A stretch of DNA of 64,000 nt from an uncultured bacterium (GTDB lineage: Bacteria; Chloroflexota; UBA5177; JANWHV01). Each line of letters opens with the position of its first letter. The first letter of the stretch is position 1. Below the pieces are notes generated by a model. That model made no database searches and had not been told where the DNA came from. It worked only from the letters and a program-made list of their open reading frames with translations. A program made the translations under genes and the position numbers. The stretch covers positions 32,001-96,000 of the forward strand of contig CAWHAE010000017.1 of the NCBI GenBank assembly GCA_963827235.1, in the 5' to 3' direction. This document shows, piece by piece, positions 9,055-64,000 of this stretch.

Positions 9055-9060
9055 AGGCGT

Positions 9061-43008: not shown

Positions 43009-43012
43009 CAAC

Positions 43013-45421
43013 ATGGAGACGACGACGCTTACCCCGGCGATGCAGAACAGCGGCTCGAAGACGCACACCCTTTCCCCGGAGCTGCTCCACCAGATGGACG
43101 CCTACTGGCGTGCCGCCAACTATCTCTCGGTCGGCCAGATCTATCTCTACGACAATCCGCTGCTCAAGCAGCCGCTGCAGCTCTCGCACGTGAAGCCGCT
43201 GGTGGTCGGACACTGGGGCACCACACCGGGCCAGAACTTCATCTACGTGCACCTGAACCGGGTGATCAAGAAGTATGACCTGGACATGTTCTACATCGCC
43301 GGGCCCGGGCACGGCGGCCCGGCCCTGGTGGGAAACACGTACCTCGAAGGGACCTACTCCGAGGTTTACCCGAACATCAGCCAGGACGAAGCCGGGCTGA
43401 AGAAGCTGTTCTGGCAGTTCTCGTTTCCCGGCGGCGTCTCCAGCCATGTGGCGCCGACGACGCCGGGGTCGATTCACGAGGGCGGCGAGCTGGGATACTC
43501 GCTCAGCCACGCCTTCGGGGCCGCCTTCGACAATCCCGAGTTGATCGTCGCCTGCGTGATCGGCGACGGTGAGGCGGAAACGGGCCCCCTGGCCACCGCC
43601 TGGCAGTCCACCAAATTCCTCAACCCCGGGACCGACGGCGCCGTGCTGCCCATCCTGCACCTCAACGGCTACAAGATCAGCAATCCGACCGTGCTGGCCC
43701 GCGTCGAGCACGAGGAATTGGAACAGTTTCTCCGCGGCTGCGGCTGGGCACCCTACTTCGTGGAAGGCGATGAGCCGGACGCGATGCATGAGCTGATGGC
43801 CACCACGCTGGACACGGCCATCGAGGAGATTCGCCGCATCCAGGGTGCTGCGCGGGATACGCACGACGGCACGCGGCCGCGCTGGCCCATGATCGTGCTG
43901 CGCTCGCCCAAGGGCTGGACGGGACCGAAGGTCGTCGACGGTCTGCAGGTCGAAGGCACCTTCCGTTCGCACCAGGTGCCGCTTCTGGTGGATTCCGACC
44001 ACCCCGATCATGTGCAGCAGCTGGAAAGCTGGATGAAGAGCTACAAACCGGAAGAACTCTTCGATGCGGATGGCCGGCTGCTGCCGGAATTGGAATACCT
44101 CGCACCGAGAGGTGAGCGGCGCATGGGCGCCAATCCGCACGCCAACGGCGGTCTGCTGCTGCGCGACCTGCGTATGCCGGACTTCCACGTCCACGCGGTT
44201 CAGGTGCCCTCTCCGGGCGCTGTGGACGGCCAGGACACGCTCGTGCTGGGTGCGTTTTTGCGCGACGTGGCCAAGCTCAACCAGGATCAGCGCAACTTCC
44301 GCATCTTCGGTCCCGACGAAACGCTCTCCAATCTCCTGGGCGCGGTCTTTGAGGTCACCAGTCGCCAGTGGGACGCCCGGGAAGAACCGAACGACGAGTT
44401 CCTGGCTCCGGACGGACGCGTACTGGACTCCATGCTCAGCGAGCACCAGTGCGAGGGCTGGCTGGAAGGGTATCTGCTCACCGGACGACACGGGCTGTTC
44501 AACAGCTACGAGGCCTTTATTCGCATCGTCGACTCCATGTTCAGCCAGCACGCCAAGTGGCTGAAGGTCACCGCCAAGCTACCGTGGCGGCGGCCGATCG
44601 CCTCGCTGAACTATCTGCTTGCCTCCCACGTCTGGCAGCAGGATCACAACGGCTTCACGCACCAGGACCCGGGCTTCCTCGACCACGTCGTGAACAAGAA
44701 GGCCGATATCGTGCGCGTGTATCTGCCCCCCGATGCCAACTGCCTGCTCTCGGTCTTCGATCACTGCCTGCGCAGCCGGCACTACGTCAACGTGGTGGTA
44801 GCAGGCAAGCACGCCTTGCCGCAGTGGCTGTCCATCGACGCGGCGGTCGTGCATTGCACGGAAGGCATCGGCATCTGGCAATGGGCCAGCAACGACCAGG
44901 GAGCCGAGCCGGACGTGGTGATGGCCTGCTGCGGCGACACGCCCACGCTGGAGATTCTGGCCGCCGTGTCGATCCTGCGCACGCATCTGCCCGCGCTGAA
45001 AATCCGCGTGATCAACGTGGTCGACTTGATGAAGCTGCAGCCCAGCACGGAGCATCCGCACGGATTGAGCGACGCTGACTACGACTCCCTCTTCACCACA
45101 GACAAGCACATCATCTTCGGCTTCCATGGCTACCCCTGGCTGATCCACCGGCTGACCTATCGCCGGACCAACCGCAACTTGCATGTCCGCGGCTACATCG
45201 AAGAGGGCACGATCACCACGGCCTTCGACATGCGCGTGCAGAACGACCTGGACCGGTTCCACCTGGTGCAGGATGTGCTCGATCGCCTGCCGCACCTGGG
45301 CGCGAAGGGGGACTACCTGAAGCAGCAGATGCAGGACAAGCTGATCGAGCACCGGCAATACATCGACAAGCACGGCCAGGACATGCCGGAAATCCGCGAC
45401 TGGAAGTGGGGCAAGCGGTAA
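43013..45421 (+). CDS. xfp: Xylulose-5-P/fructose-6-P phosphoketolase
   Basis: [74 protein letters not shown]. Confidence 0.98.
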
Positions 45422-46470
45422 TGAACACGCATGAGCTTATGGCCACAGCGCAGGCACTCGTCGCCGGGGACAGGGGCCTGCTGGCAATAGATGAGAGTCT
45501 GCCAACCTGCAACAAGCGCTTTGCCGGGTTGGGCATCCCCCAGACCGAGGAGGCCCGGCGCGCCTATCGAGAGCTGCTGGTGACCACGCCCGGCCTGGGC
45601 GAATGCATCAGCGGCGTGATTCTGTTCGACGAGACAATTCGCCAGCAGACGAGAGACGGCACGCCCTTTCTCAGGGTGCTCACGGTGGCGGGCATGATTC
45701 CCGGGATCAAAGTGGACATTGGCGCGAAGGACCTGGCAGGGCATCCCGGAGAGAAAGTCACCGAAGGGCTGGACGGGCTGCGTGACCGCCTGGCCGAGTA
45801 CGCGGGGATGGGCGCTCGCTTTGCCAAGTGGCGCGCGGTGCTTGCCGTGGCAGATGGCCTGCCCAGCCGGGCATGTCTCGAAGCCAACGCGCACGCCCTG
45901 GCGCGCTATGCCGCGTTGTGCCAGGAAGCCGGACTGGTGCCCGTGGTCGAGCCCGAAGTGCTGATGGACGGCGAGCACACGGTTGAGCGATGCGGCGAGG
46001 TCACGGAGGAAGTGCTGCGTACCCTGTTCCACCAGCTGTACACGCAGGGCGTACTGCTGGAGGGCCTGATCCTGAAGCCCAACATGGTGCTTTCGGGACT
46101 GAGCTGTCCGAAGCAAGCGCCGGTGGACGAGGTGGCCGACGCCACGGTGCGGTGTCTCCTGCGAGCCGTCCCCGCAGCCGTGCCGGGCATTGCCTTCCTG
46201 TCGGGCGGCCAATCGCCTGATCTGGCTTCGGCTCGTCTGAATGCGATGAGCGTCAGATTCGGGTCCAGACTACCCTGGCCGTTGGCGTTCTCGTTTGGCC
46301 GTGCCATCCAGCAACCGGCCTTGGAGATATGGCACGGCGAGGACGCCAACGTCGCGGCGGCGCAGCAGGCGCTCTGGCATCGAGCGAGGTGCAACCAGAC
46401 CGCGCGTCGCGGCGAGTACACAGTGGAGATGGAACTGACAGCACCAGTACTCCAGACCGCGACGCCGTGA
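45421..46470 (+). CDS. Class I fructose-bisphosphate aldolase (eukaryotic/glycolytic type)
   Basis: GLLAIDES, PGIKVD.G, FAKWR, PVVEPEVL, LKPNMV (Schiff-base Lys), FLSGGQS, FSFGRA. Confidence 0.96.
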   Translation: MNTHELMATAQALVAGDRGLLAIDESLPTCNKRFAGLGIPQTEEARRAYRELLVTTPGLGECISGVILFDETIRQQTRDGTPFLRVLTVAGMIPGIKVDIGAKDLAGHPGEKVTEGLDGLRDRLAEYAGMGARFAKWRAVLAVADGLPSRACLEANAHALARYAALCQEAGLVPVVEPEVLMDGEHTVERCGEVTEEVLRTLFHQLYTQGVLLEGLILKPNMVLSGLSCPKQAPVDEVADATVRCLLRAVPAAVPGIAFLSGGQSPDLASARLNAMSVRFGSRLPWPLAFSFGRAIQQPALEIWHGEDANVAAAQQALWHRARCNQTARRGEYTVEMELTAPVLQTATP

Positions 46471-47459
46471 GCGACACAGCGCTGTATCCTCTGACTTTCG
46501 AACCGATCTACCAGTACCGGCTCTGGGGTGGCCGGCGCCTGGCCGACCTGCTCGGCGCGCCTCTGCCCGGCGACGGTCCCATTGGCGAAGCATGGCTGCT
46601 CAGCGACCGCGCCGACCACCAGAGCCGCGTTTCCAATGGACCGCTCCAAGGACTGACCATCGGGCAGCTGATCGAGCAGTACCCGGAGCCGCTGATGGGA
46701 ACGCTGGCCGGGCGCTTCCGACGCTTCCCCTTGCTGCTCAAGTTCCTCGACGTGCATGAAACACTCTCGGTCCAGGTGCATCCCTCGGATGCGCAGACGG
46801 CGTTGTTGCCTGATGGTGAGAGCGGCAAGACCGAGGCATGGGTCGTGCTGCAAGCGGGGACGGAAAGCCGGGTCTATGCGGGCCTGAGGCCGGGCACGAC
46901 CGCGGACAGCCTGCGGCGGGCACTGGCCAATGGGACGGTGGCCGACCAACTCGCTTGCTTCACGCCGCAACCCGGCGACGGGGTGTTCATCCCGGCTGGG
47001 ACGGTGCACGCGCTGGGTGGCGACGTACTGGTGTTCGAGATTCAAGAGAACAGCGACGTCACCTTTCGTCTGTATGACTGGGACCACGTCGACGCCAAGA
47101 CGGGCCGGCCGCGAGCACTGCAGGTCGAACAGGCGCTTGCCTGCATTGACTTTGCCGGTAGCTCGGCCGGGCTGGTGGCACCCGTGATGGAAGCGACGAT
47201 GCCGGTAGGGCGCGAGCGACTCGTTCGGTGCCCACAGTTCCGGCTGTGGCGACTGCGCGGACAGTCGCCGTTTACCGTCGGTGCCGTCGGAGTGCCGCGC
47301 GTGCTCGTGTGCATCGAGGGCGAGGGGCAGGTCGAACACAGTGGCACCACGTGTGCCGTGGGAAGAGGCGATGTCGTGCTGTTGCCGGCGGTGCTCGGAG
47401 TCTGTGCGTTTCGGCCCCACGGGGACGCAAACGTGTTGGAAATGGCGCTGCCCAAGTAG
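46467..47459 (+). CDS. manA: Class I mannose-6-phosphate isomerase
   Basis: WGG, GEAW, FPLLLKFLD, LSVQVHP, GKTEAW, PAGTVHA, EIQENSDVTFRLYDW. Confidence 0.94.
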   Translation: MSDTALYPLTFEPIYQYRLWGGRRLADLLGAPLPGDGPIGEAWLLSDRADHQSRVSNGPLQGLTIGQLIEQYPEPLMGTLAGRFRRFPLLLKFLDVHETLSVQVHPSDAQTALLPDGESGKTEAWVVLQAGTESRVYAGLRPGTTADSLRRALANGTVADQLACFTPQPGDGVFIPAGTVHALGGDVLVFEIQENSDVTFRLYDWDHVDAKTGRPRALQVEQALACIDFAGSSAGLVAPVMEATMPVGRERLVRCPQFRLWRLRGQSPFTVGAVGVPRVLVCIEGEGQVEHSGTTCAVGRGDVVLLPAVLGVCAFRPHGDANVLEMALPK

Positions 47460-47539
47460 GGTGTGACCGGCCTCGGCGGGACAGCCGGCAGAGCCTTGAA
47501 CGCTGCGAGCGATCGCAGAAATCGAGAGGTGGACGCAGC

Positions 47540-48298
47540 GTGAAGAAGCTCATCGTCTTTGATCTGGACGGTACGCTTGCCGAGAGCAAGTCGGCACTTG
47601 ACGCCGAGATGTCGACACTGCTGCACGACCTGCTCGGCATCGTCCAGGTGGCCGTGATCTCCGGCGGCGATTGGCCCCAATTTGAAAAGCAGGTGCTCGT
47701 CCATCTGCCCCATGACGAACGCCTGGCACATCTCTCCCTTCTACCGACCTGCGGCACGAAGTTCTACCGGTACGCGGGGGAGTGGAAGCAGATCTATGCG
47801 GAGAACTTCAGCGCGCAGGAAAAGCAGCGCATTGTCGGCGCCCTCGACAAGGCCGTCGACGCAGCCGGTCTGAAGGTGGACAAGGTCTGGGGCGAGGTTA
47901 TTGAAGACCGGGGCAGCCAGATCACCTTCTCAGCCCTGGGTCAGCAGGCTCCCCTGGAAGAAAAGGACGCATGGGACCCCGAGTACGCCAAGCGAAAGAA
48001 GATCAAGGCGATCCTGGACACGCTCATTCCCGACTTCTCGGTTCGCATGGGCGGCGCGACCTCCATTGATGTGACCAAACCAGGCATCGACAAGGCCTAC
48101 GGCGTGCGAAAGCTGCGAGACATCCTGGGCATGTCGTTGAAGGAGATGATCTTCATCGGCGATGCCCTGTTCCCTGGCGGGAACGACTATCCGGCGGAAG
48201 AAGCGGGGGTCGTCTCCATCCCTGTGAAAGGTCCCGATGAAACGAAGCGAGTGATCGAAGCGATTATCGCCTGCCTGGATGGCGAGCAGCGCCCGTGA
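47540..48298 (+). CDS. HAD-IIB hydrolase, eukaryotic-type phosphomannomutase-like
   Basis: FDLDGTL, ISGG, IEDRGSQITFS, GG.TSIDV...GIDK, FIGDALFPGGNDY (PMM-like). Confidence 0.9.
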   Translation: MKKLIVFDLDGTLAESKSALDAEMSTLLHDLLGIVQVAVISGGDWPQFEKQVLVHLPHDERLAHLSLLPTCGTKFYRYAGEWKQIYAENFSAQEKQRIVGALDKAVDAAGLKVDKVWGEVIEDRGSQITFSALGQQAPLEEKDAWDPEYAKRKKIKAILDTLIPDFSVRMGGATSIDVTKPGIDKAYGVRKLRDILGMSLKEMIFIGDALFPGGNDYPAEEAGVVSIPVKGPDETKRVIEAIIACLDGEQRP

Positions 48299-48312
48299 GC
48301 AGGTGAGGAGAG

Positions 48313-49430
48313 GTGATGAGCGGATTCACGTTGCGGCGCCTGGGACTGGTGATGGAGCCGGAGCCGGGCAATCCCCAGGAGGTCGAGGGTGTCCTGAATC
48401 CGGCGGCCGTTCGCGGACCAGATGGTAACCTGTACCTGTTTCCCCGCCTCGTGGCGCGGGGCAACTATTCGCGCATCGGCATCGCCCGCGTGCTCTTCAA
48501 CCAGTCCGGCGACCCGGCAGGCGTGGAGCGGCTCGGCATTGCCCTGGAGCCGGAAGCGGACTACGAGCGTCGGCCCGATGGCGGCGGTGGCTGCGAGGAC
48601 CCACGCATCACGTTCGTTGAACCGCTCCAGCGCTACGTGATGACCTACGCGGCATTCTCGCCCATCGGCCCACGCATAGCGCTGGCCATCTCGGAGGACT
48701 TGTTCCACTGGACGCGACTGGGACTGGCAACCTTTGCTGCCTATCGCGGCATCGATTTCGTGCATGTGGACAACAAGGATGCCAGCCTCTTCCCGGTGGC
48801 CATCGCCAATCACGCCGGCAAACTGCAGCTTGCCATGCTCCATCGACCGCTGTTTCCCGGCACGCGTCCCGAGGAAACCGCCCGCCATGCGGCCTCCCGG
48901 TTGGTGGATCTGGATCGAGAAAGCATCTGGATATCCTACTGCCCGATGGCGTTACCGGACCGCCCATCGCCGCACCTCGGCCTGTTCAATTCGCATCACC
49001 GGCTCGCCGCCCCGGTCGCACCTTGGGAGCGGCTCAAAATTGGCTGCGGCACACCGCCCATCCTCACCCGGCATGGCTGGCTGATTCTGTACCACGGCGT
49101 GAGCGCACTGGGGGAGCCGGGCAGCGACGGACATGCACTCTGCTACTCGGCCGGGGTGATGGTGCTGGCGACGGAGCATCCGCGTCTGATCCGCTATCGC
49201 TCGCCGGAGCCGGTACTGCGGCCGGAGTTGCCGAGAGAACGCGGCGGCACCATCGCCAACGTCGTGTTCCCGACCGGCATCGACCGGCGCGACGATCTCG
49301 GCACGCCGGACCGCTTCGACGTCTACTACGGGATGGCCGACGACCGCATCGGCGTGGCTTGCCTGGACGTGCCGGAGTTCTTGCCGCCCGGAGGTGTCCC
49401 CGACCCGCCGGAACCAGAGAGGCAAGGTGC
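48313..49430 (+). CDS. GH130 beta-mannoside phosphorylase/hydrolase (stop codon not seen; the ORF reads into the ATPase)
   Basis: GVLNPAA, CEDPRIT, DNKDA.LFP, LHRP, WLILYHGV, NVVFPTG, YYGMAD. End position is approximate. Confidence 0.88.
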
Positions 49431-49551
49431 TCGATGCCGGGCGTGCAACAGCATGCATGAAACGTGTTCGCTCGCGCCTCGTCCACCGATGGTCCAGGAT
49501 CCCGCTGGGCCGAGACTGGCGGGAGGAAACAAGAACAGGAGGATAGCCACC

Positions 49552-52334
49552 ATGACACCACAGACAGATGCGGCGAAAGCTCCCGACGCGAAGGCTCCCG
49601 ATGCCAAGACTGCCGATGCGAAGGACGGATCGACGCTCGATGCGAAGGCCGCCGATACGAAGGCGCCCGAAGCCAAACCCGCTGTGAAGGCACCCGATGC
49701 GCGGGGCGATCCGGCGGCCCAATCGAAGCCGGATGCCAAGGACGATCTCAAGTCCCTGCCCATGGCGGAGGTGGAGAAACGACTGCAGTCGTCGCCGGAC
49801 GGCCTCACGCAAGCCGAGGCGCAGAAACGGCTGACCCAGTATGGACCAAACGAGATCGAAGAAAAGAAAGTCAATCCGCTCCTGAAGTTCCTCGGCTATT
49901 TCTGGGGTCCCATTCCCTGGATGATCGAAGCGGCGGTGGTGCTCTCGGGCATCGTGCAGCACTGGCCGGACTTCTTCATCATCCTTGTGTTGCTGCTCGC
50001 CAACGCCGTGGTCGGATTCTGGGAGGAACGCCAGGCGGGCAGCGCCATCGCCGCCTTGAAGGCCCAGCTGGCGATCAAGGCCCGCGTGAAACGCGATGGA
50101 AAGTGGATCACCCCGGCGGCACGGGAGCTCGTACCGGGCGATGTCATCCGCATGCGCCTGGGCGACGTCGTGCCGGCGGATGCGCGCCTGCTGGCAGGCG
50201 ACCCGGTGCAGGTGGATCAGTCCGCGCTCACCGGAGAGTCGCTGCCCGTCACGGTCTCATCCGGCGGGGCCGTGTATTCCGGGCTCGATCATCCGTCAGG
50301 GGGAAATCGGCGCCCTGGTCTATGGCACGGGTGCGAACACCTACTTCGGCAAGACCGCGCGGCTGGTGCAGGAGGCGCACACCGTCAGCCACTTTCAACG
50401 CGCGGTGCTGAAGATCGGCAATTACCTGATCATCCTCGCGGTGAGTCCTGGTGGCGGTGATTATCGCCATCTCGCTCCTGCGTGGCGACGCGGTGCTGAC
50501 CACGCTGCAATTCGCCCTGGTGCTGACCGTGGCGGCGATTCCCGTGGCCATGCCGACGGTCTTGTCGGTGACGATGGCAGTCGGTGCGCGCTTGCTGGCC
50601 AAGAAGAAGGCGATAGTCAGCAAATTGGTGGCCATCGAGGAGTTGGCGGGCGTGGACGTGCTGTGCACGGACAAGACCGGCACCCTGACCCAGAACAAGC
50701 TGACGCTGGGCGACCCGTTCAGCGTGAACGATATCCCCGCCGCGCAGGTGATCCTCGCCGGCGCGCTGGCCTCGCGCGCGGACAACGACGACACCATCGA
50801 TCTGGCCGTGCTGGGTGGCGTGAAAGACGACCAGGCCTTGAAAGGGTATCAGGTCGTCCATTTCCAGCCCTTCGACGCGGTGCATAAACGCACGGAGGCC
50901 AGCGTCAAAGGGGCGGACGGCAAGGCGTTCAAGGTGACGAAGGGCGCGCCGCAGGTGATCCTGGCCCTGTCGGCCAATGCCGGGCAGGTGCAGCCTGCCG
51001 TCAAGCAGGCGGTCGACGAGTTCGCGGCGCGCGGCTTTCGTGCCCTGGGCGTGGCGCGGGCCGAAGGAGACGGCGACTGGCAGTTTCTTGGCGTGTTGCC
51101 ACTGTTCGATCCGCCGCGGGACGATGCCAAGTCCACCATCGCGACCGCCCGTCAGATGGGTGTGACGGTCAAGATGGTGACCGGCGATGCCCTGGCCATC
51201 GCCCAGGAGACCGCCAAGAAACTGGGCATGGGCACGAACATTCTCGACGCCGGCAGCCTGGGCGACGTCAAGAAGCAGGAGACCACGGCGGTGGCCGAGT
51301 CCATCGAGCAGGCCGACGGGTTCGCCCAGGTCTTCCCCGAACACAAGTATCACATCGTGGATGTCCTGCAGAAACAGGGCCACATCGTCGGCATGACGGG
51401 CGATGGCGTGAACGACGCCCCTGCGCTCAAGAAAGCCGACTGCGGTATCGCCGTGTCGGGCGCCACGGACGCGGCGCGTGCGGCTGCGGCCATCGTGCTG
51501 ACGACGCCCGGCCTGGCGGTGATCATCGACGCGATCAAGGAGAGCCGCAAGATCTTCCAGCGCATGAACAGCTACGCGATCTATCGCATCGCCGAGACGC
51601 TGCGTGTGCTGTTGTTCATGACCCTGGCGATCCTGGTCTTCAACTTTTTCCCCCTGACGGCCGTGATGATCGTGATGCTGGCCTTGCTCAACGACGGCGC
51701 CATCCTGTCCATTGCCTATGACAACGTGCACTACAAGGATCAGCCCGAGGCCTGGAACATGCGCCTGGTGCTGGGCATCGCCACGGTGCTGGGCGTCGTC
51801 GGCCCCATCGCCGCGTTTGGCCTGTTCTATCTCGGCGATCGCGTCTTTCACCTCGCCCATCCGCAGCTGCAGACGATGATGTATCTGCTGCTTTCCGTAG
51901 CCGGACATCTGACGATTTTCCTCACCCGCACCCGTGGCCCGTTCTGGTCCATCCGTCCCGCGCGGATTCTGTTGGTTGCCGTATGCGGCACGCAAACGCT
52001 GGCGACGCTGATGGCGGTGTATGGGCTGGGGATCATGACACCCCTCGGCTGGGAATGGGCCTTGGTCGTGTGGGGCTATGCGCTGGCATGGTTCCTGGTG
52101 AGCGACCGGGTGAAACTGCTCGCGTATCGTTTCTTTGATCCGGCCAAGATCAAGACACCGATCGAGCGCGACACCGCGGACTCGCCACGACACCGTCCGA
52201 TTTGGGGCCGCGGATCGCCAAGGGTGCCTATGCCCTGTATGAGCAGCACGGCCGCCACGACGGCCACGCAACGGAGGACTGGCTGCAGGCGGAGCAGAAG
52301 GTCACGAAAGCCGACGCCACAAAAGAGGCCGTAG
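49552..52334 (+). pseudogene. Plasma-membrane proton-efflux P-type ATPase (type IIIA) with a DUF2934-like tail; three single-base frameshifts (~50281, ~50444, ~52187)
   Basis: Own RBS AGGAGG at 49537. YGPNEI, FWGPIPWMIE, DQSALTGESLP, IPVAMP, DKTGT, KGAP, DPPR, TGDGVNDAPALK, LLNDG (proton-binding Asp). Tail RIAKGAYALYEQHG...DWLQAE lies in another frame. Confidence 0.93.
49571..49705 (+). repeat. Degenerate (D)AKAP pentapeptide low-complexity repeats at the ATPase N-terminus
   Basis: AKAPDAKAPDAKTADAKDG...DAKAADTKAPEAKPAVKAPDAR. Confidence 0.8.
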
Positions 52335-52368
52335 GGCGCCGCACGGCGGCAGGTCAGAAGAACGGACG

Positions 52369-52656
52369 ATGAAAATCAAATCAAAGAACTTCTGTGTAAA
52401 GCCCGGAGAAGCGGTCAAGCTCGAAGAGCGGCCGACCGGCGTGCAGCCCCTGTACGAGTCGAAAAAGCAGTATCAGACAGTCCTGGAAGAACACGCCGTG
52501 GAGTTGAGCGCGCTGCAACGCCTGCACTACGCGTCCAGCCGCTACGCGCTGCTGCTGATCTTGGAGGGGATGGACGCGGCCGGCAAGGACGGCGCCATCC
52601 GGCACGTCATGTCCGGAGTCAATCCACAAGACTGCCAGGTGTTGAGTTTCAAACAG
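52369..52656 (+). pseudogene. ppk2: Polyphosphate kinase 2 (class III-like) N-terminal fragment
   Basis: LLLILEGMDAAGKDGAIRHVMSGVNPQ.CQV.SFKQ, then similarity stops abruptly. Confidence 0.9.
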
Positions 52657-55139: not shown

Positions 55140-56120
55140 CCACAGCCAATGGGAACGTCCTTGCCACGGTGACCGTGAACGTGGTGACGCTGTCGCCAAC
55201 CTTCGCACTCAGCGCGCCAAGCCTGATCCCTGGTCAAACGGTCACCGTCAAGGGCAAGGGCTATGCGGCTGGCGAGCAGGTCGTGCTGGCCTTGAACGGC
55301 GCCGCGCTGGCTACCTCCCCCTCCACGGTGCTTGCCGGCTCGACCAACGCCTTTAGCGCCAAGTTCGTGGTACCGGTGGCCATCAACAATGGCCTGAACA
55401 CGGTCACTGCCACCGGTGCCTCCAGCCACGCCGGCTACGCGCTCACCGTGCCAGGCAAGCTGCCCGGCGCCACCACCAGCTACTACTTCCCCAACGGCGA
55501 CACCACCAGTGGTAACCGCACGGTGATCTCCGTGCTGAACACGAGCAGTGCCGCCGCATCGCTGAAGCTCACCTTCTTGTACACTGGGGCACCGGAGCGT
55601 TCCGTACAGCAGTCGCTCCCTGCTCGGCGACAGGTGCTCATCGACCTGAATCTGGTCGCAGGTACCAGTCGGCACCTGGCTACCATCGTGCAGTCCAGTC
55701 AACGGATCGTGGCAGGCAGCACGATCTACTATGCAAAGGGGGACAGTGCGTCACCGATTGGCGCGTCGGCGCCGGCTACCAGCTGGTATCTGGCGGAATG
55801 CTATACCGGTGGTAGCTTCCATGAGTTCCTGGAAATCATGAACCCCAACGCGGCCAACGCCAACGTGGATGTGCGCTTTCTGCCCTTGAACGGCCGGCCG
55901 CCGCAGGAACACCGCTTCTCCCTGGCGCCACGCTCAACGATCTCCCTCGATACCAGCACCTACATGCCCATAGCCTCCTTCAATACCATTGTGACGTCCG
56001 ACAAGGGCGTGGTGGTGGAGCGCTCCATGCGTTTCGGCACCAACGGCCGTGGCGCTACGGCCGTCATGGGCGTGGCCGTAGCCCCAACCGTGTGGCTCTT
56101 CGCCCAGGGTGAGAGCGCGT
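55140..56120 (+). pseudogene. Internal fragment of a large secreted Ig-like/DUF5719-like protein
   Basis: Ig-like PGQTVTVKGKGY..GE.V and repeats YYFPNG.T / WYLAECYTGGSFHEFLEIMNPN / WLFAQG, VVERSMRF. No signal peptide or RBS; truncated at both ends. Confidence 0.65.
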
Positions 56121-56306
56121 CGAGGTTGGGGCATTCGGCGCTGACAAGACTATGGTCGCCAACGCCGAAGCAGGCCGCTTCTCCATAGGCCCTGAAGAGC
56201 GACTGGCCATTACCATCACCTCCGATCTCGACAGGTTGGTCGCCATAAACCAGCACGCGGTAACTGCTGTCGAGGTGGTGTGTGCCACCTTCCTCATCGC
56301 GCCGTG

Positions 56307-57017
56307 TCACTCCGGCGCAGGTACCGGTTCTATGCAGTACGAGAGGGTTTTGAGGCCTGCCAGCGTGTGGAGTTCGTCGAGAATCGGCAGCAGCTCGTGG
56401 TGCGCGCTGGGGCGAACGTGGAGCGTGAGCGTCGTCTCTTGCCGCTGCAAGTCGCTGGCGACCTGCAGCTGCAGCACGTCGGCCCCGCTGCGGCGCAAAC
56501 ACTCCTGGATGGCAAGCGGTTGCTCCGCTTGGTATGACAACAATGCCTCGATCAACAGGGGCTGCTGGGCGGGAAGCTTATCGACAGACAGGAAGCGGCG
56601 TTCGAACAGCTTGAGACCGCGCAAAATGCCTAAAGCCAGACCTGTAGTCACGATGGCGAGGGCATAGAGACCGCAACCGCAGGCCAAGCCGATGCCGGCG
56701 ACCAGCCAGACACTCGCGGCAGTCGTCAAGCCATGGACGGTGTCCTTATGGAGGATGATGGCGCCGGCGCCCAGAAACCCGATGCCGCTGACGACCTGGG
56801 CCGCGATACGTGAGGGGTCGAGCACGATGGTGTGCGTCGCGTTCACTACTGTGGTGAAGCCAAAGGAGGAGATCAGCATCATCAACGCGGCAGCCATGCA
56901 GACGAGCGTATGGGTGCGCATGCCGGCCGTTCGATACCGCTCCTCCCGCTCCAGGCCGATTCCGAGCCCCAGAACGGCGGCCAGCAGCAGGCGGAGCACC
57001 TCTTCTTGCGTCGTCAT
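56307..57017 (-). CDS. MgtC/SapB family protein
   Basis: IGLERE...AGMRTH.LV, DPSRIAAQVVSGIGFLGAG.I, GLTTAASVW, ACT-like C-terminus. Confidence 0.95.
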   Translation of the reverse strand: MTTQEEVLRLLLAAVLGLGIGLEREERYRTAGMRTHTLVCMAAALMMLISSFGFTTVVNATHTIVLDPSRIAAQVVSGIGFLGAGAIILHKDTVHGLTTAASVWLVAGIGLACGCGLYALAIVTTGLALGILRGLKLFERRFLSVDKLPAQQPLLIEALLSYQAEQPLAIQECLRRSGADVLQLQVASDLQRQETTLTLHVRPSAHHELLPILDELHTLAGLKTLSYCIEPVPAPE

Positions 57018-57239
57018 GCGTGCGTCGTTCCCGATGCCTTAAATGTTCAGCTTGGTCGCGGCGCCACAGCTGTACGGATCCAGGATAGCGCGCACCGGGC
57101 AGGCGCGCCGCGGCCGGCGTTCTTGCCCTTCCCGCATCGATGCTCCCCTGAGCAGCAGCATGGCGCTAGCGTCGGATCCGTCTGCTGATGCGGGCACGCC
57201 CGCCCAAGGTGCACATTATGGTTATGATCCTCATATATA

Positions 57240-57384
57240 TTCCCTGCGCGGTGATCACCAGGCTGTGGGCAACGCTCGTCGCATTGACCTCGTTGACCGC
57301 AACGCTCCAGTTCTGGGGCACGGTAATGGTCATCTTGCCGTCTGACGCGCCGTTAAAGGCCCCGCTGCTCGTCGTGATCGTCAT
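57240..57384 (-). pseudogene. Sulfocyanin-like cupredoxin fragment
   Basis: FNGASDGKMTITVPQNWSVAVNEVNATSVAHSLVI resembles sulfocyanin FNG...G.M.I.VP.GW.V....N....H. The C-terminal Cys/His/Met ligands are absent. Confidence 0.6.
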
Positions 57385-57677
57385 TGCGACTTCCCGTCTG
57401 GCCGCGACTGCTTGTGTGACTGCAGACGTACCCAGGGCGTCTGGCAGCACGGCAACATGTACGGGTCGGTCGCGGATGAGACCGCAGAACTGGATGAGCG
57501 ACACAGGGACTGCCTCGCTGACACGCAGACGGTGGCCTGCAGTAGCCTGACGTGCGACCGCGTCCCACACGGCGTTCTGTAAACCCCCCGCCAAGCGATA
57601 TCAAGAGCTTATTCATAGAATACGACAGTATTATAGCCCTATCTCTGTGCCATATATAGATGGTATTTCGTCTATAT

Positions 57678-57706
57678 TTGACAATAGGTGCCAAGACGCC
57701 GATACT
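57678..57706 (+). promoter_or_regulatory. Candidate sigma70 promoter TTGACA-N17-GATACT
   Basis: Perfect -35, 17-bp spacer and AT-rich upstream region; precedes the BON and SPFH genes. Confidence 0.6.
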
Positions 57707-57842
57707 TTGAAGGAATCCCCCAGCCCGACATTTCAGAGGCGGACTGGCACTGCGGTGACATTGCAGGCGCACCGTACAGCGCCACTCCATCAGTGCCGTT
57801 CGCCGGCGATGCTCCGGGCAACCGTAAGTGAGGAAGCAGACG

Positions 57843-58166
57843 ATGGCCATCAGCAACAGCAGCAGCGAGTGGGAAGCGGACGAATCGGTAAGCCAGGTCA
57901 TCGAGCGCGAGATCCAGACCAGGATGCACCAGCACACTCCCCCGATCGAGGTGTCTGCCCAGGGCTCGACTGTGACCCTCACGGGTCATGTAGCCAATCA
58001 GGCCACCAAAGAGGCGCTCATCGACTTGGCTCGCTCCACGCCCGGCGTCATGAACGTCACCGATAACCTGGAATTCGGCGGCGGCCATCCCTTCCTGGAT
58101 TGGATCTTCCCTGGAAGCGATCCGAATCGAGATCTTGGCGACGTGGATAGAGGCGAACGACGCTGA
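57843..58166 (+). CDS. BON domain protein
   Basis: IEVSAQGSTVTLTGHV......A...ARSTPGVMNVTDNL. Confidence 0.88.
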   Translation: MAISNSSSEWEADESVSQVIEREIQTRMHQHTPPIEVSAQGSTVTLTGHVANQATKEALIDLARSTPGVMNVTDNLEFGGGHPFLDWIFPGSDPNRDLGDVDRGERR

Positions 58167-58483
58167 ATGATGCCAAGCAGCGGTTGCGGCATGTCGCGCG
58201 GGAGAATGCCCGACCGTCTACCGCAGAACACCGTGGGCAGGCCGTCTGCCACAACTGTCTGCCATGCCGGGTGCTCGTCCATCGCTTTCGACTCGTACCC
58301 AGCACAGGAGGAGAAATCAAGCAATGCGGACGCAGGAGGATACAACTGGTTCGCCGTTCCGGACCTGGTCCGGTCGCACGCCGGCTCCAGCGAAGGGCAG
58401 ACATCCCGCCACGATCGTGGAGTGCAGTGTAGTGCGCGCGCTCGGCAATTGCGACCGAGCCCGGCGCCAAGGAGAGAAGCGCG

Positions 58484-59425
58484 ATGAGCGCAGCAGTCAT
58501 TGTCGTTGCCGTAGTGGTTTTGCTGGTGGTGCTGGCGGCGTCCAACGCCATACGGATCGCCCAGGAGTATGAACGAGGGGTCGTGTTCCGGCTCGGCCGC
58601 CTGATGGACCTCAAGGGACCCGGTCTCTTCTTCAAGATTCCTGGTATCGACCGCGTGCGCATGGTGGATCTGCGCGTGATCACGCTGGAGGTCCCGCCGC
58701 AAGAGGTGATCACCTCCGACAACGTGACCGTCAAGGTGAATGCCGTGATCTTCTTTCAGGTCGTGGACGCACAGGCCGCGATCGTGCGTGTCTACGACTT
58801 CGCCGAAGCGACGTCACAGATCGCACAGACCACCCTGCGCGCGGTGCTCGGACAGTCGAGCCTGGACGAATTGCTCGGCAGCCGAGACAAGATCAATGCG
58901 AAGTTGCAGACCATCATCGATCACCAAACGGAGCCTTGGGGCATCAAAGTAGGCACGGTGGAGCTCAAGGACGCCCAGCTGGACGAATCCATGGTGCGCG
59001 CGCTGGCCAGACAGGCCGAGGCAGAGCGGGAGAAGCGGGCCAAGATCATCGCCACAGACGGCGAGTTTCAGGCTGCCCAGGTGCTTGCCGACGCCGCCGC
59101 GATCATCTCCACCCAGCCGGCCGCCCTGGCCTTGCGCTACATGCAGACATTGCTCGACATGGGCTCGAACCAAAACTCGACTATCGTATTCCCTATACCG
59201 ATCGAGCTGATTAAGCCGCTGCTGGCGGCTCCCGTCACCCCTGCCCTCGAACCCTGTGGCCGCCGTCAATGGTGCGAGTCCGGTCCCGGTCAACGGTTAG
59301 ACTGCGAGCACAAGTGGGAACGGGACACCTTGGCGGTACTCCACGTGGCATGTGTGAGGGGTTGGCGCGCGTGCGTGCCGTGTTGCGACGAACGGATGGA
59401 CCACGGCCGGCAGAACCACCGGTGA
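58484..59425 (+). CDS. SPFH/slipin (stomatin-like) protein; aberrant C-terminal extension after ~59240
   Basis: EYERGVVFRLGR, DLRV..LEVPPQEVITSDNV, AQTTLR, QAEAEREKRAKII, LRYMQTL. Confidence 0.94.
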   Translation: MSAAVIVVAVVVLLVVLAASNAIRIAQEYERGVVFRLGRLMDLKGPGLFFKIPGIDRVRMVDLRVITLEVPPQEVITSDNVTVKVNAVIFFQVVDAQAAIVRVYDFAEATSQIAQTTLRAVLGQSSLDELLGSRDKINAKLQTIIDHQTEPWGIKVGTVELKDAQLDESMVRALARQAEAEREKRAKIIATDGEFQAAQVLADAAAIISTQPAALALRYMQTLLDMGSNQNSTIVFPIPIELIKPLLAAPVTPALEPCGRRQWCESGPGQRLDCEHKWERDTLAVLHVACVRGWRACVPCCDERMDHGRQNHR

Positions 59426-59443
59426 TCCAGCTTGGGCCGCTGC
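59361..59443. repeat. Exact inverted copy of 40454-40536 (response-regulator internal segment)
   Basis: Encodes LARVRAVLRRTDGPRPAEPPVIQLGPL, identical at the DNA level. Confidence 0.95.
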
Positions 59444-59576
59444 CATCTTTCAAGTCGTCACCGTACGAGCAGCGGCCTTCGCCGGCGGCGAATACAGCGG
59501 AGAGGTAGGCGAGACCACGCTGTTCTACTCCACGTTGCGCGCTGGAACGGAAGAGATCCGGGTACCGAACAGCTCG

Positions 59577-59855
59577 ATGGCGGCCAGCGTCGTGACTCTC
59601 CGGCAGCACCTGATAGAGGTCTACCTGCCGGTCATGTTGTCACCTGCACAGTGGGGCCATGTCTCAACCGCGGATCTCTCAGCATTCCTCACGTTCGCCC
59701 TACCGCCCGAGCGCGCTCTTACGCTGCGGGTGGAGCGCATGGACGGCACCAATGTGCAGCTGGGCGTGAGGGCATCGGTGGCCACTGAAGCGGCGCGGCC
59801 GACCACGGAACATGCCCGGGCGGTCGCGCTCGCACTGCTGGGCACCGCTGGCTGA
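59577..59855 (+). CDS. Hypothetical protein or fragment
   Basis: Protein-like composition; no family recognised; start uncertain. Confidence 0.4.
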   Translation: MAASVVTLRQHLIEVYLPVMLSPAQWGHVSTADLSAFLTFALPPERALTLRVERMDGTNVQLGVRASVATEAARPTTEHARAVALALLGTAG

Positions 59856-60092
59856 AGGCCGGCATAGAGACCGGAGTGCTGCGATCAAGGCAAACACGGA
59901 CAGATGTGTGACCGTGATCGAGCGCACGCGAGGAACTCGACTGTTATGGACGCAGTATGCTCTAGTTATAGGAAGAAGAGGCTGCTATCCTGGAGCAGGT
60001 GAAGTTGAAGTTCGTCCGGATAACGGCGCATCGATGGACTGGAGAGCTTGACCCCTGCTTGCGCGACCAGATGCACACATGGAGAGTTCAGG

Positions 60093-61665
60093 ATGGGCAA
60101 AGTTCCACAGGAGACGGTACCGCAAAAGAAGGCCACGTACCTCATCGCGGACGTCGCCACACTTACCGGGGTGCCGGCGCCGCGTCTGCGCTCGTGGGAG
60201 CATGCCGGTATTTTACAGCCGCTGCGATCGCCGAGTGCGACGCGGCTGTATTCCATCGACGACATGGCGCGCGTCCGACTGATTGCGCGCTCGCTCTTGA
60301 AACCCGGGCGGCGCGGCAGTCTGCGCCGTGTGGCCAAGGATTCTTGCAAGCGGCGCCCTGGTCCCCGGGCCGCAGGACTACGCGGGGCTTCCCGGTGCCG
60401 ACGAGCCGAACGTGATGAGCGATGCGGAGTACTGGCAGGCCGTGGTCGCCTCGATGGCCGAGCTGGTCGTGGTCGGGAACGCCGAGGGCCGCGTGACCTC
60501 CATGAATCTGGCCTTGCGCTCACTGCTGCACCTCGAGCCAGGGGCGGAGGAGAATCCGGAGCCTGCCCGGTCACTTGACGGCGAGCCGCCGACCCCGGCG
60601 CTGGAGACCTTGCCGCTGCGATGGTCCGCGCTGACGGGGACGCAGCACCGAGACATTATCCTGATGCTGCCCGGCCCGGCAGGAACCCAGGTGCAGACAT
60701 CCTGGACGGTCACACCGTTGCGCGACACGGATGGTCTGGCTGCCGGCACCGTGGCCGTGGGTCGCATCGTCCCGCCGGACGCATCCCTGCTGCCCGAGGA
60801 CTGGCTGGCCCTGGCGGCGAATGACCTGCGCAACCCGGTCACGACCATCCTAGGGCGGCTACAACTGGCTCGCCACGCCGGTGCCGCGCTGCAAGCGGGC
60901 GACCAGGAAGGCGCGCGGAAGCTCGAGAGTCACTTGGCGGTGGCGGAGCGAAGCGCGGAGAACCTGATTCGGGTGATGGAAACCGTGCTGGATGCATCCA
61001 AGGCCACCAAGGGGTTGCTCATCCACGATCTGGAGCCCGAAGGAGTGGACCTGACACTCCTTGCCCGGCAAGTTGTCGAGCACGAACAGCAACAAACCTC
61101 CCGCCACACGGTGACGCTCGAGGCACCGCCGGGACCGCTCCGGGTGGCCGGCGATCGCATTCGGCTGCGCCAAGTAATCCACAACCTGTTGACCAATGCG
61201 ATCAGGTATTCGCCCGAAGGCGGGGCGATCGACATGCGTCTTGAAGCGGCGGCGGCGCCATCCATGCTGCTGTTCGGCGACGATCGGGCGGCAGTCGGCA
61301 CCTCTCATGCAGCGGCCGATTGGGTCTGGGTGCGCGTGGCGGACACCGGTATGGGCATCTCGTCCGCCGCCTTGCCGCACGTGTTCGATCGTTACTGGCG
61401 GGCACCCGACTCGGAGCCGGTGATTGGCGGCGCGGGACTGGGGCTTTACGTGTGCCGGGCCATCGTGGCAGCCCACGGCGGCCACATCTGGGTAGAGCGC
61501 AGCGTGTGCGCCGCCGAGGCTGATAGCACTGCCGGCGGCTGGCACGGAACGGTAGTGGCTGTCGTGCTTCCGCTTATTGAGGCGCCGGCGCACGGTGCCA
61601 CGCCGGGCGAGGCAGCAACGGACAATCAGCAGCCTTCCGAGCATCCTAGCACGGCTGTGAGGTAA
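60093..61665 (+). CDS. MerR-HTH + PAS-like + HisKA(His->Asn) + HATPase cytoplasmic kinase, split by a +1 frameshift near 60338
   Basis: YLIADVATLTGVPAPRLRSWE.AG.L.P.RS....RLYS (MerR); VVGNAEGRVTSMN...VTPLRD.DG (PAS-like); AANDLRNP; NLLTNAIRYS, DTGMGI, GAGLGL. Confidence 0.85.
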
Positions 61666-61681
61666 GGAGGAGGGAGACAAC

Positions 61682-63340
61682 GTGGCGGAGTTGCAACGAG
61701 TCACGCCGGGCATGGTCGTCGCCGCGGCACCACGGGTGGTCGACTCGACAGGTGTGCCGAACCTGGATCTGATCCTGGGCGGCGGCCTGGCTCGGGGCAC
61801 CCTGGCGATCGTGGTCGGGCCCCCGGGATCGGGGAAAACAACACTGGCCCTGCAGACGGCCTGGGCCGCCGCCCGCGCCGGCCGGCAAGTGCTGATCTTC
61901 ACCGTGCTCTCGGAGGCGCCGAGCAAGCTGCTGGCGCATCTGAGTGCCTACGAGTTCTTCGATCCCTCGCTGATCGGCGAGCGGGTGAAGCTGCTCAGCC
62001 TGCAGCCCTTCCTGGACGCGGGGCTGGCCGGCGCGAGCCAGGCGATGATCGACCTGGTGCGTGTTGAGCGCGCGAGCCTGGTCGTCCTGGACGGGTTCAG
62101 CGGCATGCGGGCCATCGACGCCGGTCGCCTGGCGGGCCGGCACTTCATGTTTGAGGTCGGCACCGCGTTGAGTGCGCAGGAAACGACCACCATCATCACG
62201 ACTGAGGCGGAAATCCGGGATCCCCTCTTCTTTCCTGAAGCGACCACTGCGGATACGATCATCGGCCTGCATTTCCGCGTCGACGGGGAGCGGCAGCGGC
62301 GGCGGTTGGAGGTGGTGAAGGCGCGCGGAGCCACGCCCCTCTCTGGGCTGCACAGCCTGGAGCTGAGCTCAGCGGGGGTGGCGGTCTCGCCGCGACTGGA
62401 GGCCCGTGTCGTGCAGACCGGGCGGAATTCCGGGACCATGGCCGACGTGGATGAGCCCGAGCCGGCTACGGCACCCGATCCGGCGCCCCTCGCACACGCG
62501 ACCTTTGACCTTCCAGCCCTGGACGCGCTACTGAACGGCGGACTGACGCGGGCCACGACCACGGTCGTGATCGGGAGCGGGGGCACGGGCAAGACGCTGC
62601 TAGGCCTGCACTTTGCCCTGGCCGGTGTCCGCGGCGGCGAGCCGGTGGTGTTCCTTGGGTTCCACGAGAACCGGCGCCAGCTGTTGCTCAAGGCGGACGC
62701 CTTCAATCTGGGTAAAGAGCTCCGCGACGCGCTGGCGCCCGGAGGCGGCTTGACCATGTTGCACTATCCGGCGGTCGAGCTGGATGCCGACGCCCTCGCC
62801 GACCAGCTGCTAGCCGCCCTCGATCGCACGCACGCTCAGCGGCTGATCATCGACAGCATCGCCGTGGTCGAGCGGGCGGTGAGCGAAGGGAGCAGTCCCC
62901 GTCGGGTGCAGAACTACCTGTCGGCATTGATTACCGCTCTGCAAGCGCGGCGAATCAGCGCGCTCTTTACGAAGGAGACCGGCCCGCTTGCCGGGTCCGA
63001 CCTGGAGCTGGAGACCGACCTGGGCTCGGGTGTAGCGGAGAACGTAGTGTGGCTGCAGGCCGTGATCTTACGCGGGCGGCTGTACCGGGTGCTGTCGGTA
63101 CTCAAGATGCGGTACTCGCCACACGACCTCACGCTGCGCGAGTTCACGATTGCCGCGCCCGCCGGTATTGCCGTGCGCGGTCCGCTGGAGAGCGCGCCGG
63201 GATTGCTGGCCAGCATCGAGCGGGAAGAGGGAGAATTCCGGCCCAGCGCGGTCGCGGGCGCGGTCAGCGGCCACACCCGCTCGCGCCGTGCACGAGACCG
63301 GCAGCCGCTCTCCAGGGAAGCACGCAAGGAGGAGGAATGA
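61682..63340 (+). CDS. Double-domain KaiC-like (RAD55/KaiC) ATPase
   Basis: STGVPNLD.ILGGG, two Walker A motifs (GPPGSGKT, GSGGTGKT), Walker B VLDG / IIDS, KxR fingers VVKARG and VLKMR. Confidence 0.92.
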   Translation: MAELQRVTPGMVVAAAPRVVDSTGVPNLDLILGGGLARGTLAIVVGPPGSGKTTLALQTAWAAARAGRQVLIFTVLSEAPSKLLAHLSAYEFFDPSLIGERVKLLSLQPFLDAGLAGASQAMIDLVRVERASLVVLDGFSGMRAIDAGRLAGRHFMFEVGTALSAQETTTIITTEAEIRDPLFFPEATTADTIIGLHFRVDGERQRRRLEVVKARGATPLSGLHSLELSSAGVAVSPRLEARVVQTGRNSGTMADVDEPEPATAPDPAPLAHATFDLPALDALLNGGLTRATTTVVIGSGGTGKTLLGLHFALAGVRGGEPVVFLGFHENRRQLLLKADAFNLGKELRDALAPGGGLTMLHYPAVELDADALADQLLAALDRTHAQRLIIDSIAVVERAVSEGSSPRRVQNYLSALITALQARRISALFTKETGPLAGSDLELETDLGSGVAENVVWLQAVILRGRLYRVLSVLKMRYSPHDLTLREFTIAAPAGIAVRGPLESAPGLLASIEREEGEFRPSAVAGAVSGHTRSRRARDRQPLSREARKEEE

Positions 63341-63807
63341 CTGCCGCGACGTCCAGTCAACAGACAGAGGAAGCAATGGAGCCGGCTCTGGTGCTGATTG
63401 CGGAGGACGAGGAGCCGCTGGCGGAGACCGTCGCCTTCATCGTGCGCGAAACGGGCTACACGCCACTGATCGCGCTGCATGGTCGACAGGCGCTTGAGCT
63501 CGCACGGGCTCGGCGCCCGGCGCTGCTGATTCTCGACTTGATGCTGCCCTATCTGGATGGAGCGGCCGTCATTGCCGCGCTGCGAGAAGATGCCAGGAGC
63601 GACGGCACGAGCGCACCGCCAATCGTCGTGATGACCGGCGCCAGCCTGGCCATGGCGCGGGCAGCCCGTGCCGACGCGGTGCTGCGCAAGCCCTTTCACT
63701 TGGCGGATCTGGAACAGTTGCTGAGGCGCTTCCTGGCGCCTGCGCCCGCTGCCGATCAGGTGCAGACAGCCAATGGCTCCGCCACACGACAGGTGGGCAC
63801 GCCTTGA
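63337..63807 (+). CDS. Stand-alone receiver (CheY-like) response regulator
   Basis: LIAEDE, LDLMLP..DG, VVMTG, LRKPF. ATGA overlap with the KaiC-like gene; alternative start at 63376. Confidence 0.93.
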   Translation: MTAATSSQQTEEAMEPALVLIAEDEEPLAETVAFIVRETGYTPLIALHGRQALELARARRPALLILDLMLPYLDGAAVIAALREDARSDGTSAPPIVVMTGASLAMARAARADAVLRKPFHLADLEQLLRRFLAPAPAADQVQTANGSATRQVGTP

Positions 63808-64000
63808 ACATGTAGGATGCACGGGTCTCAGCATGGCCTCCGGACACGGCGAGCGAGCGTGCCACGACGCCCATACGACTACGGTCTTGCCTCGTCCATT
63901 GCGAGTGTAGTGTCGAGGAGTGCCGTATTCTCTTGCACGCGAAGAGGAGCCTCTTCAATGCCACGAATACGACACATCAAGCGTCAGTTCACCGCCGGCA

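Follow-up and report, generated by a model that had tools for sequence, protein, structure and literature searches.

By which route does a KaiC-like ATPase act on genes when the receiver encoded beside it has no output domain and the only DNA-binding domain of the module sits on a histidine kinase? This question is raised by an operon near the end of a 64,000-nucleotide stretch of DNA, the window, which corresponds to positions 32,001 to 96,000 of contig CAWHAE010000017.1 (C17) in assembly GCA_963827235.1. At window positions 60093-63807 of the plus strand, a MerR-type helix-turn-helix (HTH) is followed, after a +1 frame change, by a PAS-HisKA-HATPase part, then by a KaiC-like ATPase with two domains and, last, by a stand-alone receiver. 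The three-gene operon is conserved in uncultured Chloroflexota, and the copy of the window is that of a soil-type bacterium of this phylum. Its kinases form a family of soluble histidine kinases that start with a MerR DNA-binding domain of the CarH/LitR type, and purifying selection acts on all parts of the operon. An earlier note on this DNA had described a candidate novel signaling operon with an inverted circuit around a kinase-like protein. The gene arrangement was borne out, the circuit needs to be revised, and three features had gone unmentioned, i.e., an Asn codon at 60820-60822, an intact second operon, and a third pair of KaiC-like and receiver genes in the assembly.

A DNA-binding head on a soluble histidine kinase

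Relatives of the kinase were gathered by a search with its 445-amino-acid (aa) open reading frame (ORF), which returned 42 close homologues (P0002-P0043) with lengths of 438-593 aa and identities of 41-76%. In 41 of the 42, MerR Pfam domains are located in the same polypeptide as the kinase (fused proteins of 484-593 aa); separate encoding of the two, which the earlier note had set as a point against its own proposal, is thus not the state of the family. The single homologue without a MerR domain is P0008, on a 1.9-kb contig, and the motif LRxWE lies inside the first 90 residues of 40/42 proteins. One homologue, P0003, is a paralogue encoded by the same assembly (C12:1201406-1202992, minus strand), where it belongs to an intact second operon. 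With the N-terminal 105 residues of P0003 as the query, all near-length matches (19/19) displayed the identical architecture, and six shorter ones comprised contig-end fragments (P0129, P0131, P0132, and P0133), the internally deleted P0128, and P0130, which is out of frame; a stand-alone form of the CarH/LitR-type head was absent from the matches to this query. Within the assembly, strong matches to this subtype of MerR head were limited to 2 of 44,978 ORFs, namely, the fusion kinases. Where named, the sources of the homologues are Chloroflexota, and the titles of the loci refer to Chloroflexota, Thermomicrobiales, and Chloroflexia metagenome-assembled genomes.

In the window, four plus-strand ORFs were called with translation table 11. 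The first (60048/60093-60578) appears protein-like only over about 83 codons from the ATG at 60093 and matches the Pfam families MerR_1 (1.9e-08, 34.7 bits; cut-off, 21.6) and MerR (28.5 bits; cut-off, 28.2). The second (60328-61665, 445 aa) matches HATPase_c (5.9e-24) and, below the cut-offs, HisKA (6.8e-05, 23.3 bits versus 26.9) and PAS_4 (4.3e-04, 20.9 bits versus 23.1); the third (61682-63340, 552 aa) matches KaiC (PF06745, 1.8e-50) in two stretches, and the fourth (63337-63807, 156 aa counted from an internal ATG) matches Response_reg (PF00072, 1.5e-14). Pfam MerR_1 and the alignment to the 42 homologues delimit the 5' part of the kinase gene (60093-60341, plus strand, 83 codons), which encodes the CarH/LitR-type MerR winged HTH, with the HTH at about 60138-60290, and the conserved linker NPGRRGSLRR. 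The remainder of the kinase gene (60343-61665, plus strand) was delimited by Pfam, the homologues, and a structural model of P0003, and it comprises PAS (about 60457-60765), DHp-HisKA (about 60802-61011), and HATPase_c (about 61150-61575) subdomains. A membrane segment was not found in the kinase, with a maximum Kyte-Doolittle value (window of 19) of 1.57 for the window protein and 1.17 for P0003, which agrees with the solubility asserted before. A gap of 16 nt (61666-61681) separates the kinase ORF from the KaiC-like ORF, and the stop codon of the latter overlaps the receiver start by 4 nt (ATGA, 63337-63340); the coupling of the three genes is hence as first described.

Conservation of the operon was assessed at the 11 distinct loci that remained after removal of duplicates, i.e., the window, the C12 copy, G001, G003, G002, L011, L012, L098, L100, L101, and L102 (G003 was merged with L009, L095, and L099, and G002 with L010; L103 is very close to L012). 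Pattern-based scans of the collections had returned mostly generic kinases; of the 78 genome loci, 4 belonged to the family, as did 6 of the 77 metagenome loci. The genes of a locus were defined as ORFs of at least 110 aa and retained if Pfam-positive. A loss of linkage, the other finding that the earlier note had held against its proposal, was not encountered at any informative locus. The KaiC-like gene comes next after the kinase in 10/10 loci with downstream sequence (L102 ends 45 nt past the kinase), the receiver gene comes next in the 8/8 loci that reach so far, and the 4-nt overlap of stop and start codons is present in 8/8.

The affiliation of the head with the CarH/LitR type is based on the best PDB sequence matches of the paralogue's DNA-binding domain, which are CarH (3.8e-05), LitR (4.2e-05), and CarA (1.1e-04), light-dependent repressors of the MerR family (PDB 5c8d, 3whp, and 2jml); in the ESM Atlas, residues 1-235 of P0003 hit generic PAS and MerR clusters. 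An AlphaFold2 (AF2) model of P0003 from a 30-row alignment (pLDDT 74, pTM 0.50) consists of a winged HTH (residues 14-67), a short helix (74-86), a low-confidence linker, a PAS domain (110-225), a DHp domain (234-305), and a catalytic domain (320-494). The long antiparallel coiled-coil of MerR is not present in this model, which predicts a 13-residue helix (74-86) instead, and the Pfam MerR_1 match of the window head ends at profile position 51 of 69. A MerR-type winged helix without the canonical long coiled-coil is a trait shared with CarH, LitR, and CarA, and oligomerization would therefore have to come from the C-terminal module. Unlike in these repressors, this module is a PAS-DHp-catalytic domain unit and not a B12-binding one, and neither a light nor a B12 link is indicated.

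Apart from its head, the family presents itself as a normal histidine kinase. The phospho-acceptor His of the H-box is found in 41 of 43 aligned family rows, with the window protein (Asn) and P0041 (Asp) as exceptions, and the N, G1, F, and G2 boxes of the window kinase read NLLTNA, DTGMGI, FDRYWR, and GGAGLGL. Since the receivers have kept their Asp as well, ordinary phosphotransfer from kinase to receiver is to be expected. Between the window and the C12 paralogue, the ratio of nonsynonymous to synonymous divergence (dN/dS) amounted to 0.083 for the MerR part, 0.254 for the kinase remainder, 0.189 for the KaiC-like gene, and 0.344 for the receiver gene. The inverted circuit of the earlier note, in which a regulator that merely resembles a kinase would have its DNA binding directed by the KaiC-like ATPase and the receiver acting upstream of it, appears improbable on this basis. 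It would account for the location of the module's sole DNA-binding domain, for a receiver without an output domain, and for the missing His of the window copy, but the His is a property of the family, all ATP-binding boxes are in place, the receiver is phosphorylatable (D/D/T/K), and the Asn is private to the window copy.

The KaiC-like ATPase, its receiver, and related modules

The KaiC-like gene (61682-63340, plus strand) encodes a double RecA-domain ATPase with a CI half at about 61739-62416 and a CII half at about 62513-63178. The closest solved structure is a KaiC chain (8zn5, E = 1e-40), but the protein remains below the cut-offs of both NCBIfam equivalogs (PRK09302, 162 bits versus 408; TIGR02655, 109 bits versus 546). 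In 10 aligned sequences, both halves show invariant Walker A (GPPGSGKT and GSGGTGKT) and Walker B (LVVLDG and RLIIDS) motifs, a catalytic Glu (E78 and E329), and a K..R motif; of the EE pair of KaiC, each half keeps one Glu only. The position of S431/T432, the KaiC phosphorylation pair, is occupied by S-G in the window protein according to a HMMER alignment to 8zn5, by S-S, S-G, or S-A in 7/10 relatives, and by P-A, S-A, and A-I in the three most divergent ones. The absence of kaiA and kaiB, noted before for the window, extends to the whole assembly, which is 95.9% complete and yielded 0 matches to PF07689 (KaiB) and PF07688 (KaiA), while control searches found Synechococcus elongatus.

The receiver gene (63337-63807, plus strand; PF00072) is translationally coupled to the KaiC-like gene. 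D24, D67, T100, and K118 are invariant among nine aligned sequences, with D24/E26 as the acidic pocket, and no Pfam domain besides Response_reg was detected in the protein, in line with the earlier statement that the regulator has no output domain. Pairs of KaiC-like and receiver genes are also duplicated as a unit without the kinase, as exemplified by the third copy on C12 and by an additional pair directly downstream of the operon in G001.

The pairing of a hexameric ATPase of the KaiC family with a receiver and a soluble histidine kinase recalls the cyanobacterial KaiC-SasA-RpaA system. RpaA carries a DNA-binding domain, whereas the receiver reported here does not; in addition, KaiA and KaiB are missing from the assembly, the kinase has no KaiB-like N-terminal domain, and the KaiC-like protein reaches just 162 of 408 bits. 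The combination of a DNA-binding domain and a histidine-kinase core on one polypeptide is likewise known from the hybrid two-component systems of Bacteroides, in which a kinase and a receiver are joined to a DNA-binding domain of the AraC type. These hybrids reside in the membrane, where their sensors face the periplasm, and they include a receiver of their own and end in the AraC domain; in contrast, the kinase of Chloroflexota is soluble, bears an N-terminal MerR head, lacks an internal receiver, and has a KaiC-like partner.

In environmental Pseudomonas, the neighbors of KaiC-like genes have previously been reported to encode a kinase and a single-domain receiver (Terrettaz et al., bioRxiv 10.1101/2022.01.26.477890). 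According to that report, KaiC of Pseudomonas binds the PAS domain of the kinase, the phosphosite of group III is SS, CS, or SG, and the receiver is devoid of a DNA-binding domain, its output being an open question there. For Rhodopseudomonas palustris, a kaiC-kaiB-PAS kinase operon is mentioned (PMC4794148). Our modules share with those of Pseudomonas an operon that combines a two-domain KaiC-like ATPase with a PAS kinase and a receiver lacking an output, the absence of KaiA and KaiB, a putative pair of the S-S/S-G type at S431/T432 as in group III, and the possible presence of several KaiC-like copies per genome. They differ in the N-terminal MerR-type DNA-binding domain of the kinase, in the gene order kinase, KaiC-like, receiver with its obligatory 4-nt overlap of the last two genes, and in the phylum, Chloroflexota. 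The proposed novelty of the signaling operon accordingly does not extend to the combination of KaiC-like ATPase, kinase, and output-less receiver, but stands for the MerR head, which has no counterpart in the Pseudomonas modules.

By analogy, the operon is probably best explained as a Pseudomonas-type module of KaiC-like ATPase, kinase, and receiver whose transcriptional output would be the kinase's own MerR heads. The KaiC-like hexamer, depending on its ATP/ADP and Ser-phosphorylation state, would dock on the PAS domain and set the balance between kinase and phosphatase activity; the kinase would phosphorylate the receiver, which could serve as a sink or as a feedback partner. Dimerization of the kinase would tether two MerR heads, which might then bind a promoter-proximal repeat (candidate, ATAGAG-N8-CTCT) that would overlap the -35 region of the operon's own promoter, and this binding would depend on the signaling state of the kinase, so that the output would be integrated into the kinase, unlike in Pseudomonas. 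A stricter version, which we put forward tentatively and regard as possible rather than probable, is that the kinase itself acts as the transcription factor and that the nucleotide and Ser-phosphorylation state of the KaiC-like ATPase and the phosphorylation of the receiver gate its MerR heads, with information passing from receiver and ATPase to kinase to DNA and not, as usual, from kinase through a regulator to DNA. A role as a timer or an energy sensor is speculation.

The second operon and two lesions of the window copy

The window copy of the kinase gene has two lesions. Compared at the protein level with its uninterrupted homologues, frame 0 reads ...GRRGSLRRVAKD and frame +1 continues with LASGALVPGP. 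Relatives read ...PGRRGSLRRVAKD-LASGALVPGPEDYAGL..., while the window holds frame 0 through AKD and then enters LASGALVPGP in frame +1. Nucleotide alignment to the C12 paralogue identified one extra T at 60341/60342 (plus strand; GAT-T-CTT, i.e., TT where relatives have a single base) as the sole uncompensated indel in the kinase gene; the frameshift had been predicted at about 60338 and thus to within 4 nt. That an N-terminal MerR domain appears once a single extra base is repaired is likewise confirmed by the MerR_1 match and the alignment. Programmed +1 frameshifting was considered and rejected, since the homologues are uninterrupted and the site offers neither a stop codon nor a slippery context. 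The second lesion is located in the H-box AANDLRNP, where the codon AAT (60820-60822, plus strand; CAT in the paralogue) places Asn at the phospho-acceptor position in the alignment of 43 family rows; the nearest relative, P0002, is intact and has His.

The intact operon on C12 is 79.9% identical to window positions 60081-63754 over 3,706 nt, and both operon copies are likely paralogues of one genome. The third KaiC-like and receiver pair (C12:1194871-1196914) shows 81.7% identity with the window and 93.3% with the second copy. Between copies 2 and 3, synonymous divergence (dS) is 0.063 for the KaiC-like genes and 0.51 for the receivers, a discrepancy that hints at gene conversion limited to the ATPase. 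A "KaiC island" beside the second operon (G000:C12:1191942-1196950; locus L096:5943-10951) also harbors a more canonical KaiC-like gene (506 aa; PF06745, 7.7e-86), which is followed by a gene for a GAF-HisKA protein without a HATPase_c match.

Extra bases are not confined to the kinase gene. Within a 9.5-kb block of the window (42969-52485) that is 90% identical to the congener G001, five uncompensated single-base differences were found, all of them extra in the window. Four (50284, 50446, 52166, and 52180) split the gene of a P-type cation ATPase (49477-52370; E1-E2_ATPase, Cation_ATPase_N, and Hydrolase), and the fifth, at 49477, adjoins the gap between two genes ahead of it. The P-type ATPase is an intact ORF of 945 aa in G001, and its dN/dS of 0.126 resembles the 0.12-0.28 of its neighbors, a pattern that suggests clustered insertion errors in the assembly. 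Three uncompensated +1 insertions were likewise found in the third KaiC-like copy, which has a dN/dS of 0.24 and a dS of 0.063 relative to the second copy. All uncompensated indels seen in the assembly are single-base insertions in genes with an undisturbed signature of selection, and because these genes are under purifying selection, we regard the frameshift as more probably an assembly artifact than a real recent lesion.

Alternatively, the window copy could be a decaying duplicate in which the frameshift and the His-to-Asn exchange are real and recent, leaving the C12 operon as the only functional one. The lesions may then have produced a kinase-dead, possibly phosphatase-only PAS-kinase remnant and a short MerR peptide. 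Two independent lesions in one gene, the extra T and the CAT-to-AAT change at the phospho-acceptor, are what decay would leave behind; the intact paralogous operon would make the window copy dispensable, the closest orthologue P0002 is unimpaired, and P0130 (195 aa, on a 55-kb contig), whose frame is lost after about residue 150, represents a comparable out-of-frame form. However, the window kinase deviates at 7 of 136 columns of 90% conservation, a mid-range value among the family members (9 of 140 for P0002), and its terminal branch is short, with 0.13 compared to 0.20 for P0002 and 0.31 for P0003 in a quick IQ-TREE phylogeny with SH-aLRT support from which P0008 was left out. The low dN/dS of the MerR part (0.083), the intact KaiC-like and receiver genes downstream, and the clustered +1 insertions in other selected genes, which point to consensus errors, speak against decay as well. 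We consider it a possible but clearly less probable explanation than an artifact.

Candidate operator, neighborhood, and route to output

If the MerR heads bind DNA, a candidate operator is at hand upstream of the kinase gene. The sequence ATGGAC-N8-CTCT (59946-59963, plus strand; family motif AT[AG]GA[CG]-N8-CTCT), a pattern match derived post hoc, is the single match in the 64-kb window, where 0.29 are expected. From a reading of the sequence, a -10-like hexamer, TATCCT, follows a TGC at 59986-59991 (plus strand), and the motif is situated exactly 22 nt upstream of a TAnnCT hexamer (TGnTAnnCT-like) in 4/8 upstream regions, i.e., those of the window, the C12 paralogue, L098, and L101; in L101, it forms an inverted repeat of 8 bp without a mismatch. 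Among 184 loci, its occurrence away from those of the family was close to background. At this distance, the motif overlaps or precedes the -35 region and does not lie within the spacer. Operators of CarH overlap the -35 region, as the candidate motif does. A consensus sigma-70 scan of 59300-64000 returned 0 sites, and the -10-like hexamer is therefore a lead only; terminator-like sites in the same segment occurred at chance level.

With respect to the neighborhood, a divergent fatty-acid desaturase gene and a downstream AI-2E transporter gene accompany the C12 copy and L098 only (L096:17309-18268 and 12128-13264; L098:3090-4064 and 8145-9254) and are possible membrane- or temperature-related targets. 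An SPFH gene is found nearby in the window and, together with groEL, upstream in L098; the upstream SPFH genes of the two loci are 42% identical. The last 60 or so residues of the window's SPFH ORF (58484-59425) look non-protein-like, and the 3' end of the gene contains 88 nt (59361-59447) that recur inverted 19 kb upstream at 40449-40536 (minus strand; 98.9% identity), with two copies only in the whole assembly. Beyond the window, inverted repeats of about 390 nt (C17:97833-98221 and 99150-99541, equivalent to window positions 65833-66221 and 67150-67541; 79.6% identity) are located in a stretch of about 4 kb after the receiver gene that contains no ORF of at least 110 aa with a Pfam match. 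Antisense ORFs of 202-355 aa across the operon had no Pfam match, and an Rfam scan of 56000-64000 detected no family. The operon is not a defense system, since PADLOC matches were merely weak and concerned generic HTH and P-loop domains.

The output might also take another way, in which the MerR head merely autoregulates or tethers the kinase, while the phosphorylated receiver addresses unlinked partners, as has been proposed for Pseudomonas, either by taking up phosphate as a sink or by attaching to the KaiC-like hexamer or to other regulators. The duplication of KaiC-like and receiver pairs without the kinase (the third copy on C12 and the second pair of G001), their translational coupling at 8/8 loci, the position of the candidate motif at the operon's own promoter, and the retention of an otherwise complete operon in the lineage with a degenerate MerR region would all fit, and a phosphate-sink role is suggested in the Pseudomonas report (bioRxiv 10.1101/2022.01.26.477890). 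On the other hand, constraint within the kinase is strongest on the MerR part, its subtype is confined to the fusion within the assembly, and no conserved DNA-binding protein other than the kinase head was detected in the neighborhood. We therefore judge an output through the receiver to be doubtful, and a transcriptional output through the MerR heads of the kinase is preferred.

Several observations weigh against the picture drawn here. DNA binding by the kinase, the contact of the KaiC-like protein with the PAS domain, and phosphotransfer are predictions. The candidate motif is a post hoc derivation, it is not present in four of the eight upstream regions (G001, G003, L011, and L102), three of the four motif-positive regions are close kin, and its location is outside the 19- to 20-bp spacer typical of MerR activators. 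Since flanking genes are not conserved among the loci, a regulon cannot be assigned to the module. In L012/L103, the most divergent lineage, the MerR region has degenerated strongly (identity to P0042, 32%; E = 2e-06), and the DNA-binding head is therefore not indispensable everywhere; the segments L012:620-874 and L103:4180-4434, which replace the MerR domain, have lost LRxWE, while the PAS-kinase, the KaiC-like ATPase, and the receiver are retained. In a survey of 401 genomes of the phylum that scored the top three candidates per genome, the family was found with P0003 in four (E <= 1e-60), all from one genus, i.e., the window assembly and three of its four congeners; the fourth congener, G004, which is 90% complete, had no family match. 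L011 and L012 place the family also in other lineages of Chloroflexota. Moreover, the assembly has a size of 8.0 Mb and 9.06% contamination, compared to 4.4-5.4 Mb for its congeners, and the block on C17 is 90% identical to G001 at the nucleotide level, whereas the C12 region is 73-81% identical, so that the two "paralogues" could stem from different organisms combined in one bin. Finally, the His-to-Asn exchange is a substitution, unlike the type of error seen elsewhere in the assembly, and together with the intact paralogue it fits a real loss of kinase function in the window copy.

Kinases with a MerR head may extend beyond the KaiC-linked family. A phmmer search with the 116-aa N-terminal fragment P0129 against a metagenome protein library clustered at 50% identity resulted in 898 matches at E <= 0.001, 21 at 1e-10, and 6 at 1e-30. 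A Pfam scan took in 14 of the best 150 matches listed, mainly long second-tier ones picked by length, and 6 of these 14 exhibited the architecture MerR-(GAF/PAS)n-HisKA-HATPase with 532-1326 aa (P0141, P0144, P0145, P0147, P0158, and P0161); the remaining ones include MerR-GAF-PAS proteins and P0192, a MerR-GAF-GerE protein. Directly downstream of the G003 operon (L095:401-4069, minus strand), a gene encodes a protein of 1222 aa that has an HTH_17 domain at its N terminus in addition to several PAS domains, GGDEF, and EAL, which is a further signaling enzyme bearing a DNA-binding head in the same neighborhood. Full-text searches found no paper on the MerR-kinase fusion, on its link to KaiC, or on the wider class; matches to "MerR" in clock papers were discarded because they go back to the author name Merrow.

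The family offers a clean example from nature of a histidine kinase with a DNA-binding head, and we found no literature on this architecture. KaiC-like ATPases are widespread outside cyanobacteria, and their route to gene expression is open. With a DNA-binding head on the kinase and a candidate operator at its own promoter, the question of output becomes directly testable in this family.

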